64,000 nt of DNA from Octopus sinensis (lineage: Eukaryota): the NCBI RefSeq assembly GCF_006345805.1, contig NC_043018.1, forward strand, positions 23,684,001 to 23,748,000. Direction: 5' to 3'. A model generated the notes under the pieces. That model was not told where the DNA came from and did not search any database. It worked only from the letters and a program-made list of their open reading frames with translations. Each line of letters begins with the position of its first letter. The first letter of the stretch is position 1. The translations under genes and the position numbers were made by a program. This document shows, piece after piece, positions 30,036-52,931 of this stretch.

Positions 30036-31157
30036 ATGGCGGCTACGGTATTGAGAAACCTGGTCCGGGTCAGTGTTATTCCCAATTACTCGATAATCAG
30101 ACATTCTTGTTCACGTTTATTCTCTAGTAATGCACGAACATCGTTTGCTGTCATTTACGAACAGAATGGAGATCCTAAAACGGTATTGAAAAGTAAGGAG
30201 CATCCATTGCCCTCTAAAATCAAGGACAACGAAATTTTGGTGAAAATGTTGATGTCACCTATTAACCCAGCGGACATCAATATGATTGAAGGAACGTACA
30301 TGATAAAGCCACCACTTCCTGCTATCGCTGGAAATGAAGGTGTCGGTGAGGTGGTGGAAACCGGTGATAACGTTAAAAAGTTTAAACCTGGAGACTGGAT
30401 CCTCCCTCTGAAAACAGGTTCTGGTACATGGCAAACACATGCAGTCTACAGTGAATCCGACGTACAGAAGATCCCGAACGACATCCCGCCCTTAGTAGCA
30501 GCTACCATCGCTGTTAATCCTTGTACTGCTTATAGAATGATGAAAGATTTCGTCAAACTTGAACCTGGCGACGTGATTATTCAAAATGGTGCTAACAGTG
30601 GAGTTGGTCAAGCTGTTATTCAGTTGGCTTCCGCATGGGGGCTTCGGACCGTCAACATAGTTCGAACGAGACCTGACATCGATGCACTAACTGCGGACCT
30701 GAAATCACAAGGTGCTACCCATGTTGTCACTGAGGAATTCTGTCGTACCCCTGATATGAAAACTTTGATTAAGGATCTTGGCAAAGCACCGAAATTGGGC
30801 TTTAACTGCGTTGGCGGAAAAGCGGCCACCGAACTACTTCGAAACCTCGCCCCTAACGGTTACATGGTTACCTATGGAGGTATGTCTAAACAACCAGTTA
30901 CTGTTCCTACTGGGGTGTTTATTTTTAAATCCTTAAAGCTGGTTGGTTTTTGGATGAGCCAGTGGAATACTGACAATTTCAACACACCCCAGAAAACCGA
31001 AATGATGCTAGACCTTTGTCATCTGGCACGCCAGTCTAAACTATTAGCGCCAATTTCTGACCTGGTTCCTATCACATCCTTTGATAAAGCAATTGCTGAG
31101 GCACTCAGGGGATTTAGCAAGAAACAAATTCTGGTTATGGATAAAACTTTATTGTGA
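30036..31157 (+). CDS. MECR: Mitochondrial trans-2-enoyl-CoA/ACP reductase (MDR superfamily), intronless, 373 aa
   Basis: Uninterrupted ORF from aacATGG. R/S/L-rich acid-free N-terminal transit peptide; SPINPADINMIEGTY (catalytic Tyr), GNEGVGEV, ATIAVNPCTAYRMMKDF, QNGANSGVGQAVIQ (NADPH loop), NCVGGK, MVTYGGMSKQP, GFWMSQW. Confidence 0.96.
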   Translation: MAATVLRNLVRVSVIPNYSIIRHSCSRLFSSNARTSFAVIYEQNGDPKTVLKSKEHPLPSKIKDNEILVKMLMSPINPADINMIEGTYMIKPPLPAIAGNEGVGEVVETGDNVKKFKPGDWILPLKTGSGTWQTHAVYSESDVQKIPNDIPPLVAATIAVNPCTAYRMMKDFVKLEPGDVIIQNGANSGVGQAVIQLASAWGLRTVNIVRTRPDIDALTADLKSQGATHVVTEEFCRTPDMKTLIKDLGKAPKLGFNCVGGKAATELLRNLAPNGYMVTYGGMSKQPVTVPTGVFIFKSLKLVGFWMSQWNTDNFNTPQKTEMMLDLCHLARQSKLLAPISDLVPITSFDKAIAEALRGFSKKQILVMDKTLL

Positions 31158-31939
31158 TCTAAATAGCTTAATGGAAGGACCAATATATTTTTAAGACTTG
31201 CGTAAAACTTTTCTTTTAATTAAAACACTGAATGCTATAACAATTAACTCGTGCAATTAATGCAATAGGTAAAGCTTTAAACATTTTAAAAATATACTGT
31301 ACATATATAAATATCTTTGCACAATATATATTTGTGAAAATATTGCATATTTATGTTTTTTATTTGGAATTGCAACGAGTGTTGTAGACTAGGTTCCTAG
31401 TAAGCTTACATACATTTCCATTCCTTGTTTAATCTAATAATTCTTCAAAAATATGATGATGTTGACAAAGTACCTAAATTTCATCTGGAAGGTTAAAAAA
31501 AATATTCAAGTTTTTATAGCAAAACAGTAATTTGATGAATGTTTGGCTGTTTGCAACAAAGGTTCTGTTATCATTGCCATCCTGTTTCACCAAAGTATCA
31601 GGTGATGATCTTAGGAATGCTTAGGTCCCTGCAGTGCGGTAATGCTTGACAACAGGTATTGGTTTGTTCATGTCTCTGTTATTCAGCAGTTTAGCAAACA
31701 GAGTCTCATGGGGTAATTACCAGGCTTTCAGAAGAAAACAAGAGTTCCGGTGTCAATTCTTTCAATTAAAACCCTTCAAAGTGACACTCCAGCATGGCCA
31801 TAGTCAAATGACTGAAACAAATAAAAGATATATACACACACTCATGTATGTATATATGCATATATATATATATATATAAAAACTTGAATATTTTTTTTAA
31901 CCTTCCAGATGAATTTTAGGTACTTTATATATATATACA

Positions 31940-32150
31940 CAGTAACCCCTCGCCATATCGTGGTTCACCTATTGTGCCCTCAGTACATCGCAGATTTTTC
32001 TGGCTAATATATGTAAATTTATATCGCAGACTCCGTAGTATATCTGGGTTTCTGCAGCTGATAAGTATAAGTATTTATATTCCTTTAGGATTATATTATT
32101 TCTGTTGGCGGTTTTGGAACGTAACACCTGTGATAGTCAAGGGATTACTG
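31940..32150. mobile_element. pogo/Tigger-like MITE
   Basis: CAGTAACCCCTCG / CAAGGGATTACTG TIRs. Confidence 0.65.
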
Positions 32151-32498
32151 TGTGTGTTGTGTGGTAACTAGCTTGCTTACCAACCACATGGTCATGGGTT
32201 CAGTCCTACTGCATGGCACCTAGAGTGTCTTCTACTATAGCCTCAGGCCGACCAAAACCTTGTGAGTAGATTTGGTAGATGGAAACTGGAAGAAGCCCAT
32301 CATGTGTGTGTGTCTGTGTTTGTCCCCCCAACATCGCTTGACAACCAATGCTGGTCTGTTTATGTCCCTGTAACTTAGTGGTTCAGCAAAAGAGACCGAT
32401 AAAATAAGTACTAGGCTTACAAAGTATAAGCAATGGGGTCGATTTGTTCGATTAAAGGCAGTGCTTCAGCATGGCCACAGTCAAATGACTGAAACAAA

Positions 32499-32536
<38 letters not shown>

Positions 32537-32882
32537 GACAGCTTCTGTGCAGTGTCCATCTACCAAATTTCATTCACAACATCAGTGGCATGGAGAGGGG
32601 AGGCTGGCATGCATGGATGACTGCTAGTCTTTTATAAACCACTTTACCCAAACTTGTACCTAGGAGAGGAACTTTCTAGGTGCATCCCATGGTCGTTCAT
32701 GACTGAAGGGAGTCTTCTAGTTTGGTTCTTAAATTAGCTAATAATTCGATTTGATATTTAATAGGATATTTACTTTTAAAAACTAAAATTTAAAGGAGCA
32801 ATTAACCAAAATTTTAAAAAATTGTACTGTTCTAAACAGGGGAGTTATCGGCTCCATAAGGAGAACATGGGGTCAAACAACA

Positions 32883-33318
32883 CCAACCATGGTTCATGGT
32901 CTCAAAAATTTGTCCTACGAAGAAAGGCTGAGGACACTCGACCTTTATTCTCTTGAAAAACGCCGCCGCTGTGGTGATCTCATTCTCGCCCACAACATCA
33001 TAAGCGGAAAGTGTAACCTCTTGAAAGAGCTGTTCTTCACTCCTGCTCCAGAGCGTCGGCTGCGGGGTCATTCCGAAAAGCTCTACCTGCGACGATTTCA
33101 TCTCAATCGAAGGAGAGGAGCTTTCTCCGTCCGGGTTGCGGATCTGTGGAACAAGCTGCCAGACGAGATGGTGAAGACGCCGACGACCGCTTTGTTCAAA
33201 GCCTCCCTTGACCTCAAGTGGCCTGAACTCTTTACATGAACACCACCCTGTACTTAACTCCATGTCCCCCTACATGGCCTTGCTATTTGCTTTTGAGCCA
33301 AATTAACTAACTAACTAA
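32883..33318 (+). mobile_element. CR1-clade LINE 3' end, 5'-truncated, young-looking
   Basis: Intact frame LSYEERLRTLDLYSLEKRRRCGDLI..RGHS..FSVRVADLWNKLP, (CTAA)n tail. Confidence 0.88.
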
Positions 33319-33837
33319 CATATCTGTAGAACTATTCCAACTTTTGATATGAATGATAAAAGACAAGCAATTAACCTAGAAATAGAACAATTTTATTATT
33401 CCTCAATCTCATACAGCATTTGGTTACCAACTTGATTCTGAAAGATACAAATTTTTTTCCTTATTTATTTATTTATTAATATTATTATTTGTAACATTAG
33501 CATTATTCTTTTATTACATTAATATATATATATATATAATTAGTGAATGGAAGAAATGGAGCTGAACGAAGATTCTTCCATTCACTAATTATATTAAACT
33601 TCAATTATCCGCGCCAACGCATGGTTGCAACACCCTATGGTCATAACTCCAACCGTGTTTTTTCTGCTGTGATTTTTGCTACCCAGGTATCGGTTAAACT
33701 TTTGAATAATCCGTAACAAGATAATTCATCTTTCCATTTCAACAAATATATATATATATATATATACCGGAGTAAACACATAAATGTGAAACAAGGTGGA
33801 AAAAAGAGTACTCAAATACCAGTGGTAGAGTAATATG

Positions 33838-33995
33838 CTTTATTTAAAGCAGCAGAAAATTCAACAAAATCTGTTACTCTGAGTTTCTCGTTGCCGTTCA
33901 TCAGACAGTTTTTGCTAGCAAAAACTGTCTGATGAACGGCAACGAGAAACTCAGAGTAACAGATTTTGTTGAATTTTCTGCTGCTTTAAATAAAG
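33838..33995. repeat. Perfect 158-bp palindrome
   Basis: 79-nt arms, no spacer, centre GCT|AGC at 33916/33917. Confidence 0.95.
33921..33967 (+). ncRNA. Minimal type I hammerhead ribozyme motif (mirror copy on minus strand at 33866-33912)
   Basis: AAAACTGT-CTGATGA-ACG GCAA CGA-GAA-ACTCAGAGT-A^ACAGATTTT; helix II is short and opens with an A.A mismatch. Confidence 0.7.
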
Positions 33996-34113
33996 TATAT
34001 ATATATATATAAAGTTAATCCAAACAAGAAAACAAAAACAAAAAAACAACAACGCAAGGACGTGGAACAAATAAAGTATTATTGGATACTCAGGAAAGAA
34101 GGGAAGAAGGAGG

Positions 34114-34148
34114 GTTTGACGTTTCGAGCGGAGCTCTTCGTCGGAAAC
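34114..34148 (-). ncRNA. Minimal hammerhead ribozyme motif, C4 core variant
   Basis: GTTT-CCGACGAA-GAGC TCC GCTC-GAAACGTC^AAAC. Confidence 0.6.
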
Positions 34149-34213
34149 ATAGGAGAAGGAAAGATCCCAAGAAGGGAAGACGGGAAAAAAATCGCTAGTG
34201 ATACAGACGAGGT

Positions 34214-34283: not shown

Positions 34284-34427
34284 CAGTCATGGCCAAAAGT
34301 TTGGAACATAGGTCTAAAAATTAGAATTTTAATATTAAATGCCCAAAGTTATATTTGGTCAGAACATATATTGGGCATCACAATTTTAATTTTTTTTTTA
34401 AATGTTCCAAACTTTTGGCCACAACTC

Positions 34428-34429
<2 letters not shown>
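34284..34429. mobile_element. Tc1-like MITE
   Basis: CAGTCATGGCCAAAAGTTTGGAACA / TGTTCCAAACTTTTGGCCACAAC TIRs. Confidence 0.75.
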
Positions 34430-34469
<40 letters not shown>

Positions 34470-36204: not shown

Positions 36205-36662
36205 ATCTTAGGTTAAAACTCCAAGTTATGATTGATCTTAAGCTAAAATCCAAGATATGACTGATCTTAAGCTAAGATCCAAAGCATGATTGATCTTAAG
36301 CTAAAGATCCACAGTATGATTGATTTTTGGGAAAGATCCAAAGATATGATTGACCGTCAACTAAATATCCAAGGTATGATTGATTTTTGGTTAAAGAACC
36401 TAGGTATGATTGATCTTCAGCTAAAGATCCAAAGTATGATTGATCTTATGCTAAAGATCCAAGATATGATTGATCTTAGACTAAAGATCCAAGATATGAT
36501 TGATCTTAGACTAAAGATCCAAAGTATGATTGATCTTAGACTAAAGATCCAAGATATGATTGATCTTAGACTAAAGATCCAATGTATGACTGATCTTCTG
36601 CTAAAGATACAAGGAATGGTAGGTCTTTTGGTTAAAGATCCTAGGTATGATTTATCTTAGGC
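36205..36662. repeat. 30-bp minisatellite, about 15 copies, internally self-complementary
   Basis: (TATGATTGATCTTAGACTAAAGATCCAAGA)n. Confidence 0.92.
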
Positions 36663-36867
36663 TCATTATTGATGTCCCTGTTACACTTCACTCTGTTACG
36701 TGTGTGGCTGTGACATCCTAAAGTTTATAAGGTGAGTGTCACTAAACTTCAGCCATTATCACTAAAGGCACTGCAAATATGTGTATGGTATTCGTGTAGG
36801 GATTAATGAATCCTGCAACATTGTAGAAGCTGTAATGTCCTTTTCAACCCACATATATATACACATT

Positions 36868-47051: not shown

Positions 47052-49133
47052 TAATAATAATAATAATCCTTTCTACTATAGGCACAAGGCCTGAAATTTG
47101 AGGGAGGGGAATAGTTGATTACATTGACCCCAGTACTCAACTGGTACTTATTTGATCGACCCCAAAAGGATGAAAAGCAAAGTCGACCACGGCAAAATTT
47201 GAACTCAGAACGTAAAGATGGGCGAAATTCCACTAAGCATTTTACCTGATGTGCCAACGATTCTGCCACCTTTCTACTAAATGCACAAGGTCTGAAATTT
47301 TGGGGGAGGAGACTAATCGGTTAAATCAACCCCAGTGTTTCACTGGCATTTAATTTATTGACCCCAAAAGGATAAAAGGCAAAGTCAACCTTGGCAGAAT
47401 TTGAACTCAGAACATGAAGACATGAAATGCCACTAAGCATTTCGCCCAGCATGCTAACGATTCTGCCAGTTCACTGCCTTATCAACAACAACAACAACAA
47501 TAATAATAATATTTTCTACTTTAGGCACAAGGCCCGAAATTTTGGAGAGGAGGCCAGTCGATTAGATTGACCCCAGTACGCAACTGGTACTTGATTTATT
47601 GACCCTGAAAGGATGAAAGGCAAGGTCGACCTCGGCGGAATTTGAACTCAGAACATAAAGACAGAGGAAATACTGCTAAGCATTTCGCCCAGCATGCTAA
47701 AGATTCTGCCAACTCACCATCTTATCAACAACAACGATGACAATAATAATAATAATAATAATGGTTTCAAATTTTGGCACAAGGTTTGCGATTTTAGAGG
47801 AGGGGGCTCATCGGTTACATCAGCCCCAGTATATAACTGATATGACTGAGGGGATGAATGGCAAAGCTGACCTCGGTAGTATTTGAACTCAGAACATAAT
47901 GAGGCGCAGGAGTGGCTGTGTGGAAAGTAGCTTGTTTACCAACCACATGGTTCCGGGTTCAGTCCCACTGCGTGGCACCTTGGGCAAGTGTCTTCTGCTA
48001 TAGCCTCGGGCCGACCAAAGCCTTGTGAGTGGATTTGGTAGACGGAAACTGAAAGAAGCCCATCGTATATATGTATATATATATATGTGTGTGTGTGTGT
48101 GTATGTTTGTGTTTGTCCCCCTAGCATCGCTTGACAACCGATGCTGGTATGTTTACGTCCCCATCACTTAGCGGTTCAGCAAAAGAGACCGATAGAATAA
48201 GTACTGGGCTTACAAAGAATAAGTTCCGGAGTCGATTTGCTCGACTAAAGGCGGTGCTCCAGCATGGCCGCAGTCAAATGACTGAAACAAGTAAAAGAGT
48301 AAAAGAGTAAAGAAATGTAAAAATTACCGCACTTACTTTGTCCATGCTGGCAGCATTCAAACGCATGACAGAAGAATGTGCAATACGATCAAAGACTGCT
48401 CTCATTGCTTTCTTGGAGTAAACAGGCTGTAAACGGAATAACTCATCCATGAAATGTTTGCTGAACATCGTACCAACGATTTCCTGCAGAACTGGAATGA
48501 CCAAAATGGAATTGCGTAGTTTTTAATTAGAATTAAGTTAGGTTTTAATACATTTAAGGTATTGCCACCACTACCTCAACTGTTATAACACACATATAGA
48601 GACAGACAGACAGAGAGACATAGAGAGAGAGTGATGACAGGACAGAAACAGATTTTATGTGGTAGAAGAGATATGAGATGCATTCCAGAAGTTTTGGAAT
48701 TTCTTATTTAGGATCCTCAAGTTATAACTGTTCTAAATTATTGTAATTTTAGTGTATCATTACCATACTTGTTAAAAGCTGACCTGCCAACCTTCTTTTA
48801 CGAGACTGAAGAAAACAGCTGCAAAAGCACTTTGAACACATCCTACTAAACACAGCTTGTCACGAGTGGCTAAATTTGTAGAATACAGTCGCGACAGTTG
48901 GAAGTTTTCTATGAAATAATGTTTTGTGTTAAACTATGCAAAAACTTTACAGAAACCTATGAAACCAATAGGCGCAGGAGTGGCTGTGTGGTAAGTAGCT
49001 TGCTTACCAACCACACAGTTCCGGGTTCAGTCCCACTGCGTGGCACCTTGGGAAAGTGTCTTGTACTATAACCTCGGGCCGACCAAAGCCTTGTGAGTGG
49101 ATTTGGTAGACAGAAACTGAAAGAAGCCTGTCG

Positions 49134-52200: not shown

Positions 52201-52822
52201 CTTTCAACCACACAACCTTGGCTTAAGTGTGTAAAAGTTTGTTTAAAGTAAGGGGAGAGGGAGGGGGAGAAACCAGAGTTTGTTTGGATTGAGGGAGTGA
52301 GAGACAGACAGACAGACAGATGCGAAATTATACACAAAAGGAATAGAGGGAAATTTGGGGAATGAGAGAAAGAGAGAGAGGGAGGGATAAGGAGAGAGAG
52401 AGAGAGAGAAAAAGAAAGAGTAGGAGACAATGAGGACAATAAGCACAAGGAGGATGAGGAGGAGGGAAATTTGGGGAATGAGAGAAAGAGAGAGAGGGAG
52501 GGATAAGGGGAGAGAGAGAGAGAGAGAGAAAGAAAGAGTAAGAGACAATGAGGACAATAAGCACAACGAGGATGAGGAGGATTATACACACATGCACACA
52601 CACACACACATATACGTGCACTAATATACATACATGTACAAACACACACACATTTACATACGCATATAAAAGTTAAAATCTTTTAGTACTTTTTTTTTGT
52701 TGTTTTTTACCTTTTTGTGTTTTGTCTTCCATCACATTCTGTGCATGAAGCCTTTGGTCTAAGATGTACATCATTTCTCCTCCAAGATTTAAAATCAGGG
52801 CCGGCAGAGTACGCAACGACAT
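36868..52822 (-). CDS. OSCP1: Organic solute carrier partner 1 (OSCP1/NOR1), complete 10-exon CDS, 1149 nt, 382 aa
   Basis: Exons 52711-52822, 48337-48491, 46811-46978, 44511-44591, 44268-44371, 42636-42761, 40952-41030, 39852-40006, 38312-38369, 36868-36978; all GT-AG and phase-consistent. Motifs MSLRTLP..LNLGGEMMYILDQRL, RLNAASMDKLYDLMTM, EFQLLRQT..FFQD.HVRVS, ELNRIMGE..DLLDLMD. Confidence 0.95.
37218..37537. mobile_element. hAT MITE
   Basis: TIRs CAGTGGTTCTCAA / TTGAAAACCCCTG, perfect 8-bp TSD ATCTACAT. Confidence 0.9.
38312..38369 (-). CDS. OSCP1: OSCP1 exon 9
   Basis: PAIIRDATKPLEIMIDASK; phase 2 to 0. Confidence 0.82.
39852..40006 (-). CDS. OSCP1: OSCP1 exon 8
   Basis: ...ALAQLQLLSRLIGM...IELNLFCSTPEDKDDDE...; phase 0 to 2. 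Confidence 0.87.
40952..41030 (-). CDS. OSCP1: OSCP1 exon 7
   Basis: YSDDNHIVTADGKSKSSLSCRGGPDG; phase 2 to 0. Confidence 0.8.
41700..42525 (-). repeat. Tandem array of about 177-bp SINE B-derived units
   Basis: Repeated GCATTTTGCCTGAATGGGCTAATAATTCTGCCAGCTCGCCGCCTTTGTGCAAGACATTATATTG junction. Confidence 0.85.
42636..42761 (-). CDS. OSCP1: OSCP1 exon 6
   Basis: SFDENGKLVKSISANPGGRYLPSAKGSIEPKGDRGTKLGCN; phase 2 to 2. Confidence 0.9.
43828..44240 (+). mobile_element. SINE family D (MetaSINE-like domain, (GAT)n tail) with internal ~50-bp repeats
   Basis: CGTTAGGAAGGGCATCCAGCCGTAGAAA domain, CCCATGCTAGCATGGAAAGCGGACG tail; another copy at 7010-7255. Confidence 0.7.
44268..44371 (-). CDS. OSCP1: OSCP1 exon 5
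   Basis: VSIYLKEKIQNADGSFVLSRSGQVAWNTEIPIVIR; phase 0 to 2. Confidence 0.92.
44511..44591 (-). CDS. OSCP1: OSCP1 exon 4
   Basis: MYSELSDGEFQLLRQTALSFFQDIHVR; GTAAGT donor. Confidence 0.93.
45443..46064. mobile_element. hAT MITE containing a Helitron
   Basis: TIRs CAGTGCTTCTCAAA / TTTGAGTAGCACTG, 8-bp TSD ACTTAATG / ACTTAACG. Confidence 0.85.
45555..45887 (+). mobile_element. Non-autonomous Helitron
   Basis: A|TCTCTATATATATAAA start, GCAACGCCGGG subterminal motif, CTAG|T end. Confidence 0.8.
46811..46978 (-). CDS. OSCP1: OSCP1 exon 3
   Basis: LYDLMTMGVKYQFLMC...RKFIK; ttttcag acceptor, GTTTGT donor. Confidence 0.93.
47066..47890 (-). repeat. Chain of diverged SINE B copies, mostly separated by (TAA)/(CAA) tracts
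   Basis: Four same-orientation copies; similar chain at 57075-59175. Confidence 0.8.
47902..48312 (+). mobile_element. Family A SINE, young-looking
   Basis: Near-consensus copy abutting OSCP1 exon 2. Confidence 0.88.
48337..48491 (-). CDS. OSCP1: OSCP1 exon 2
   Basis: LQEIVGTMFSKHFMDELF...RLNAASMDK; cattccag acceptor, GTAAGT donor. Confidence 0.93.
48971..49423 (+). mobile_element. Family A SINE
   Basis: Near-consensus copy. Confidence 0.88.
50493..51449 (-). repeat. Tandem pentamer of family B SINE (182-184 bp units)
   Basis: Unit starts 50493, 50677, 50861, 51043, 51226; near-identical. Confidence 0.92.
51641..52040 (+). mobile_element. Family A SINE
   Basis: Near-consensus copy. Confidence 0.88.
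52347..52580. repeat. Tandem duplication of about 118 bp, purine-rich
   Basis: GAGGGAAATTTGGGGAATGAGAGAAAG...GAGGATGAGGAGGA occurs twice. Confidence 0.85.
52711..52822 (-). CDS. OSCP1: OSCP1 coding exon 1
   Basis: MSLRTLPALILNLGGEMMYILDQRLHAQNVMEDKTQK; donor G|GTAAAA. Confidence 0.93.
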
Positions 52823-52931
52823 TGTTTTGCCTCTTCTCTAATCCTCTGGACTTACAGTTTTTTTTTGTCTTCGACAAGTTTTTAAACTTTTTCCTAGCGC
52901 TCTCTCTCTCTCTCTATCTATCTGTCTATAG

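Follow-up and report, generated by a model that had tools for sequence, protein, structure and literature searches.

A 229-bp head-to-head insertion of a Hydra-clade Penelope-like element in Octopus sinensis, and a doubled hairpin that likely marks where its copying starts

Penelope-like elements, the sister group of telomerase, are known to leave structurally complex insertions: inverted copies, a tail at one end and hammerhead motifs on opposite strands are all published features. Penelope-13_HM, for instance, combines an inverted copy truncated at its 5' end with hammerheads on the two strands (Craig 2021, PMC8557442), and hammerheads of metazoan Penelope-like elements lie 100-700 bp apart on opposite strands and have low activity as monomers, and a circular template has been proposed for them (Cervera and de la Pena 2014, PMC4209133). 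For the Poseidon element PAc of Anolis, in vitro work showed that the enzyme cuts and extends both DNA strands and accepts uncleaved RNA, hammerhead cleavage being unneeded, and a dimer was predicted (Frangieh 2024, PMC11167929). The origin of the tails and inverted repeats is treated as open in the literature considered here. We have analysed an insertion at 33767-33995 of a 64,000-nt stretch of the 2.72-Gb Octopus sinensis genome (GCF_006345805.1, NC_043018.1, positions 23,684,001-23,748,000; this whole stretch is the window, and all coordinates are positions within it). The insertion is real, young and common and represents a new family in a known clade, the Hydra clade of Penelope-like elements, whereas the perfect palindrome that forms its core is, taken alone, ordinary retroelement debris. 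In this family, two conserved RNA hairpins likely tell the enzyme where copying starts on each cut DNA strand.

The original prediction had described 33838-33995 as a perfect palindrome and had read it as a Penelope-type inverted pLTR (pseudo-long terminal repeat), a reading that was correct and can be narrowed to the Hydra clade. These 158 bp are indeed their own exact reverse complement, with the symmetry broken at the next base pair outward, and RNA folding turns them into one hairpin of -138.1 kcal/mol (z -26). To equate the palindrome with the element fell short, however, because the true insertion in (TA)n is 229 bp long and includes an overlooked 71-bp tail at 33767-33837. Likewise, (TA)n tracts do flank the element on both sides as proposed, but this tail separates the left arm from the left tract, the order being (TA)n, inverted tail, left arm, right arm and (TA)n. 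In the full-length copies L031 and L277, the tail sequence runs from the pLTR end toward the open reading frame (ORF). The 150-nt tail arm differs from the ORF-bearing copy L277 by a single base, and the insertion is therefore very young. Its features are as follows, 'stubs' being the short head-to-head copies of the family and RT standing for reverse transcriptase:

33747..33766, no strand: left part of the (TA)n target (sequence)
33767..33995, no strand: the whole 229-bp insertion, i.e. inverted tail, inverted arm and direct arm of a Hydra-clade Penelope-like element (palindrome and stub analysis; comparison with L277)
33767..33837, minus strand: 71-bp tail, putatively the RNA stretch separating RT start sites 1 and 2 (same sequence in full-length L031 and L277)
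33808..33831, minus strand: hairpin 1, with an ACTC/GAGT stem, a 3-nt bulge and a 4-bp upper stem; candidate RT-binding signal (minimum free energy fold, motif counts, covariation)
33838..33918, minus strand: left arm, pLTR 3' end reaching 10 nt upstream of hammerhead stem I (palindrome and stub analysis)
33871..33908, minus strand: mirror hammerhead motif (core pattern and palindrome symmetry)
33915..33918, no strand: CTAG, self-complementary overlap of 4 joining both arms (identical centre in 11/50 junction records)
33915..33995, plus strand: right arm, without tail, ending at RT start site 1 adjoining (TA)n (palindrome and stub analysis)
33925..33962, plus strand: hammerhead motif of type I and of the dimer type, with cleavage predicted between 33958 and 33959 (core pattern; stem I, core and paired stem III bases as in Hydra-2_aMil of the Craig supplement)
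33996..34011, no strand: right part of the (TA)n target (sequence)

A search of the genome for other copies, as had been suggested, was done by sequence pattern and found 2,397 exact matches to the 38-nt hammerhead core and 6,749 matches to the 3'-end anchor. Per strand, 500 head-to-head pairs have no more than 30 nt between their cores, a count in which overlapping matches figure a few times twice. These pairs follow a rule of one tail per pair. Among 47 stub loci (the first 50 head-to-head matches, with a triplicated locus and a double match each collapsed to one), 43 combine one tailed and one tail-less arm, one is tail-less, three are unscorable and none has two tails, which amounts to 43/44 scorable loci. 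Starting instead from the first 100 of the 3'-end anchors, one tail is seen in 37 of 38 distinct pairs and again two tails in none; a further 37 unpaired records stop at either site (25 tail-less and 12 tailed, some of them being pairs with a decayed partner). Both 3' ends are base-exact in most copies, and tail copies mostly stop at one identical base ahead of (TA)n. In 38/39 scorable stubs a subfamily base is common to both arms, and the centre found in the window occurs on both subfamily backgrounds (7 and 4 cases), which argues for one template lineage with a joint made anew each time. The joints are diverse, with 26 different spacers among the 50 junction records, and arms range from less than 40 bp to more than 3 kb with the architecture unchanged. 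Kilobase-scale head-to-head insertions with arms up to 3.2 kb (L033, L036 and L163) obey the one-tail rule as well. At L089, L121 and L127 the tailed arm halted within the tail, such that an inverted tail piece is joined to a full arm.

An important question is what defines the two 3' ends. In the minimum free energy fold, the tail forms a bulged hairpin beginning 6 nt after site 1, and full-length copies have a second hairpin that begins 8 nt after the tail end and 73 nt from the first. The motif thus follows each of the two 3' ends at a distance of 6-8 nt, with the consensus RCTC...GAGY(N)AC. It is not restricted to this family: among 79 related loci, which are not all independent families, 68 have the hammerhead core and 60 have room for the tail, and 49 of these 60 show RCTC...GAGYAC 25-70 nt past the cut site, compared with 4 of 765 ORF windows. 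When collapsed to 39 distinct versions, the hairpin is doubled in 24 of the 34 with room for a second, at a spacing of 55-73 nt. Alignment of 33 hairpin rows, which were selected by the lower-stem motif and omit 7 of the 39 first hairpins as near-duplicate or oddly long, gave 94.5% paired cells and 36 double-sided changes, with none of 500 shuffles as high, although kinship among the rows inflates this test. TATA or ATAT occurs within 10 nt before hairpin 1 in 26/39 versions (3/39 control windows) and before hairpin 2 in 12/26 (4 in the control). Moreover, in each of the nine cases in which the natural (TA)n end of a relative could be paired with a read-through copy that has a hairpin within 25 nt, the end precedes this hairpin by 6-9 nt. 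In one relative (L197:394-501), a (TA)n run separates the tail from hairpin 2, which looks like an extension of the TA alignment bases.

A third regularity is found at the opposite end of the arms. Counting from hammerhead stem I, the longer stub arm stops at -10, -12 or -13 in 38/47 loci, with -12 being ambiguous with -10 within an A run, and extends beyond -13 in only 2/47. Genome-wide, the 500 head-to-head pairs with a core gap of 0-30 nt compare with 70 having a gap of 31-61 nt, and of 80 arms in the sample anchored on the 3' end 42 have their end in -14..0, as opposed to 3 of 38 in -29..-15 (p 1.6e-6). Matches reaching 0, -10, -15 and -30 number 3124, 2115, 1276 and 1050, respectively, the last obtained with a shorter core. 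This corresponds to a per-base loss of 9.6% between -10 and -15 and 1.3% beyond, where approximately 1.2% is expected from sequence variation alone. A pile-up at the hammerhead cut site was not found: an arm ending at about +16..+46 was present in only 24 pairs, with 7 at +33..+36 when read by eye, against approximately 500 at the wall near -13. Joints of -13/-11 (8/47) and -13/0 (2/47) occur, and 10/47 stubs reach -13 and are joined with an overlap of 0-2 nt, CTAG being unused. Position -13 is the A of CCATTCT, which we take to be an initiator-like word. A search for spliced copies via the TAG directly before stem I gave one match, which was not at the AG, but this is a weak test as these elements keep introns.

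How might these features arise together? The reading we favour, at a rough probability of two in three, is that the short head-to-head insertion into (TA)n was made by a dimeric RT-endonuclease that twin-primes one uncleaved RNA, with the cDNAs running off the RNA 5' end and joining via CTAG. The dimer would nick both DNA strands and prime each of them on the same uncleaved element RNA, with each subunit binding one hairpin, starting 6-9 nt upstream of it and priming one strand. The tail would then correspond to the RNA between the two start sites, and the TA-like bases near these sites may help to bring the (TA)n primer into register. The wall at -13 would represent the RNA 5' end, probably a start site at CCATTCT. 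On an RNA starting at about -13, cDNAs would run off after approximately 84 and approximately 155 nt and, joined here through CTAG, would give exactly the observed insertion. That none of 15 full-length copies stops at the wall on a second pass means that a second template pool has to be assumed for the long copies, likely one without such an end, i.e. tandem read-through RNA or hammerhead-cut, circularised RNA; a strong stop plus jump as origin of the long copies was rejected on the same count. A more comprehensive version can be formulated, which we advance tentatively and at somewhat less than even odds: the doubled clade-wide hairpin is the binding signal of the dimeric RT-endonuclease, each hairpin sets a priming site 6-9 nt upstream, their spacing sets the tail, one RNA primes both strands, about half of the arms are strong-stop products that map the transcript 5' end, and full-length copies come from hammerhead-processed circular or multimeric RNA. 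If so, the hairpin pair would account for tails, inverted pLTRs and the hammerhead together.

Several observations weigh against parts of this scheme. The upper stem of hairpin 2 is often weak, with at least 3 pairs in 6/26 cases where shuffles reach a maximum of 7, and by pattern search the second hairpin was not found in 10/34 relatives with room for it. The lower stem is near-invariant and recognition may be by sequence instead of structure; also, the related loci behind the hairpin counts are partly non-independent. At site 1, the base opposite the primer end is C, i.e. a mismatch. As for the wall, the ambiguity caused by the A run applies to all -12 ends, an older subfamily has many ends within the hammerhead, and 0/15 full-length copies stop at -13 on their second pass, which shows that the wall fails for some templates. 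The RNA 5' end at -13 is a putative one, read from copy ends in the genome, and in the published account the start site of Drosophila virilis Penelope is situated 46 nt upstream of an intron of 75 nt that extends to the hammerhead, not 13 nt before the hammerhead.

Twin priming could also operate in the same way without any transcription start near the hammerhead, in which case the pile-up at -10 to -13 would reflect RT pausing, an exonuclease stop at an extended helix I or favoured joining at CTAG. Helix I can be extended to about -10 in the predicted fold and to -13 when the sequence is read by eye, CTAG is self-complementary, ends also climb gradually through the hammerhead (8, 10 and 15 per 15 nt) and full-length copies cross -13 freely. 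Yet joining makes far less use of an AATT site and of a longer self-complementary site located another 10-17 nt upstream (70 pairs in total), the ten stubs that join at -13 with an overlap of 0-2 nt do so without CTAG, and a pure pause should be seen on second passes too, where 0/15 stop; overall, we consider this alternative unlikely, though worth keeping in mind. Fold-back self-priming, by which a strand folds over at a short palindrome and serves as its own template (on an antisense template according to the Discussion of Arkhipova et al. 2013, PMC3846280), is the published reading and agrees with perfect centres being located at self-complementary words and with the subfamily bases shared by both arms. 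The -13/-11 and -13/0 joints, however, leave no space for a loop, and self-priming accounts neither for the exact termination of the second arm at the other start site, by (TA)n and 6-8 nt ahead of a hairpin of its own, nor for solo copies ending at either site, which makes it quite improbable here.

Other explanations concern not the mechanism but the nature of the locus. A non-autonomous palindromic element, resembling a miniature inverted-repeat transposable element (MITE) or a retrozyme and copied ready-made from a master, would fit the recurrence of the window's exact centre in 11/50 junction records. Rather than one fixed structure, however, the 50 records show 26 spacers, the identical centre sits on both subfamily backgrounds, arm lengths vary from <40 bp to >3 kb within the same architecture and hairpin 2 is absent from stubs; this possibility is already largely refuted and very small. 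The palindrome might alternatively serve the host as double-stranded RNA or ribozyme switch for MECR or OSCP1, or be an ADAR or Dicer substrate, since the genes on either side converge on it and any transcript of it would fold into a very stable hairpin. Both neighbours were confirmed: MECR is represented by an ORF at 30036-31157 on the plus strand (E 8e-114 to a solved mitochondrial enoyl-ACP reductase), and OSCP1 on the minus strand by Pfam Oscp1 matches in 2 of 40 frames tested (48277-48522 and 52676-52837), with a last exon at 36978-36868 that was read by eye and has no database match. Yet the insertion is located 2.6 kb and approximately 2.9 kb past their respective stops, is preceded on each strand by five poly(A)-type hexamers, is very young by its 1/150 difference from an ORF-bearing copy and has some 500 similar stubs in the genome. 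With about 500 alike, the palindrome is not special to this locus; nothing indicates that transcripts of MECR or OSCP1 reach it or that it regulates either gene, and we give such a role hardly any chance. Four sequencing runs compared with 31150-34200 were swamped by other copies and revealed no empty site, no unique insertion-spanning contigs and no editing; the T>C changes at 33870 and 33888 belong to subfamily variation and are also present in the two genome-sized runs. An assembly artefact arising from fold-back chimeric reads would be compatible with the junctions lacking confirmation in independent reads, but its probability is close to nil, as the two flanks differ, the outer ends on either side coincide with those fixed for the family in (TA)n and the architecture is common to approximately 500 loci, each with its own junction and mutations.

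What, then, do the hammerheads contribute? The core pattern has only two matches in the window, at 33929-33950 (plus strand) and 33883-33904 (minus strand), where shuffles gave a mean of 0.28, so that a hammerhead on each strand, with the core intact, was correctly predicted; Rfam at gathering thresholds reported no ribozyme in the window. CUGANGA, GAA, A15.1-U16.1, H17 and helix I of a type I hammerhead are all in place, and stem III is palindromic, i.e. of the dimer type. In place of a stable helix II with G10.1-C11.1, there is A.A followed by 2 bp and a GCAA loop; several Hydra hammerheads in the Craig supplement are also mismatched at this position, but their stems are longer. A single arm is predicted to adopt another fold (minimum free energy -10.9 kcal/mol, z 0.5), the monomeric hammerhead fold reaching only -0.4 kcal/mol. 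The proposed competition between the long hairpin and ribozyme folding is supported by the predicted energies, by which the full hairpin would prevail (-138 versus -0.4 kcal/mol); even on its own, however, one arm should make a poor monomer. If the hammerhead has any activity, it likely works as a dimer within a tandem transcript. In stubs the motifs are on opposite strands and therefore cannot dimerise within one transcript, and stub hammerheads would be passengers.

The family was assigned by ORF motifs, (TA)n target and hammerhead position and by these marks is a young Hydra-clade Penelope-like element. The clade markers are RWK, DKT, a CxCX5C linker, and CxxC and CxH around conserved E and N replacing CCHH (Craig 2021, PMC8557442). 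A 723-aa frame (L036) contains RWK (LRWKAFF), DKT (NSDKTRN), the linker as CNCKSESSC, and CKLCLLE and NLCRH around E and N. It is a single ORF with RT and C-terminal GIY-YIG endonuclease, matched by eye to Hydra proteins in the Craig supplement; Pfam matched no family to the family ORF product P0001, and a related protein, P0003, carries GIY-YIG. Among 63 scored ORF matches, eight span residues 15-723 without a stop. As for the target, 128 of 170 site-1 records read exactly into TATATA, with overlapping loci partly counted twice. The hammerhead is near the 3' end, and the insertions have the architecture of Penelope-like elements, with a pLTR tandem, an inverted copy truncated at its 5' end and a tail on one side; the unit between direct repeats is 3,345 bp in L031. 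In its hammerhead and 3' end the family is unlike the published Hydra-1_Obim. An older subfamily (L098, L130, L156 and L159) has C replacing hammerhead-core U4 and G or T before GAAA, and its arms end inside the hammerhead more often.

The surroundings of the insertion contain further small features. MECR is a single unbroken ORF, possibly a retrogene, whereas its neighbour OSCP1 has many introns. In the MECR 3' region, 31467-31926 has 52-bp inverted repeats 356 bp apart, and one sequencing-run contig links 31505-31816 (plus strand) with 31889-32022 (minus strand). A decayed 3' piece at 32787-33239 is high-copy in the sequencing-run comparison and without Pfam match; it presumably resembles a CR1/L2-type long interspersed element (LINE) ORF. 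A small inverted repeat adjoining (TA)n (33517-33556 and 33578-33596) may be another small insertion, 34284-34430 is a short MITE-like element with inverted ends of about 27 bp between (TA)n tracts, and a 30-bp tandem array (36205-36672) follows directly past the OSCP1 stop.

Overall, this family offers young copies, ORFs without stops, a candidate cis-signal with covariation and counts in the hundreds; with young copies and a candidate 24-nt hairpin signal, the question of tails and inverted repeats becomes directly testable. The hairpin motif also lets annotators locate the ends of Hydra-clade elements. Three regularities appear to be unpublished, i.e. one tail per pair, a hairpin 6-8 nt past each 3' end and a pile-up 10-13 nt upstream of the hammerhead: the open-access literature yielded no account of the hairpin doubling, of a count of tails per pair or of piled-up 5' ends, a scope outside which Repbase, Dfam reports and supplementary figures fall. 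The main text of Craig 2021 (PMC8557442) does not contain the word 'hairpin', and the motif can be seen by eye in several consensus sequences of its supplement, doubled in Hydra-1_Ajap.

Compared with known systems, the family resembles the Hydra clade of Craig 2021 (PMC8557442) in the motifs of its C-terminal endonuclease ORF, its (TA)n target and its hammerhead near the 3' end, and differs by a unit of 3.35 kb (mostly <3 kb in the published clade), a tail of 71 bp (30-40 bp given for other clades) and a stem II of only 2 bp. With the dimer-type hammerheads described by Cervera and de la Pena 2014 (PMC4209133) it has in common the core, the palindromic stem III and the location on opposite strands, but here stem II is very short and without G10.1-C11.1 and just 16 bp separate the motifs. 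Like this family, non-LTR retrozymes (Li et al., bioRxiv 10.64898/2026.07.22.740005) have a type I hammerhead derived from Penelope-like element ends; they form head-to-tail arrays, however, in contrast to the single head-to-head pair found here. In Adineta vaga, Penelope (Arkhipova et al. 2013, PMC3846280) shows the same head-to-head inverted copy, junction palindrome and tail at one end, yet in few copies and with self-priming on an antisense template as the explanation. The one-tail-per-pair count and the 5'-end pile-up were not found in the covered text on PAc (Frangieh 2024, PMC11167929), which belongs to another clade and has an AC-rich stem loop at its start sites instead of two conserved hairpins at a fixed distance downstream; PAc has two internal RT start sites that bound the tail, and the octopus family would share these along with the cutting and extension of both strands, the predicted dimer and the dispensable hammerhead cleavage.
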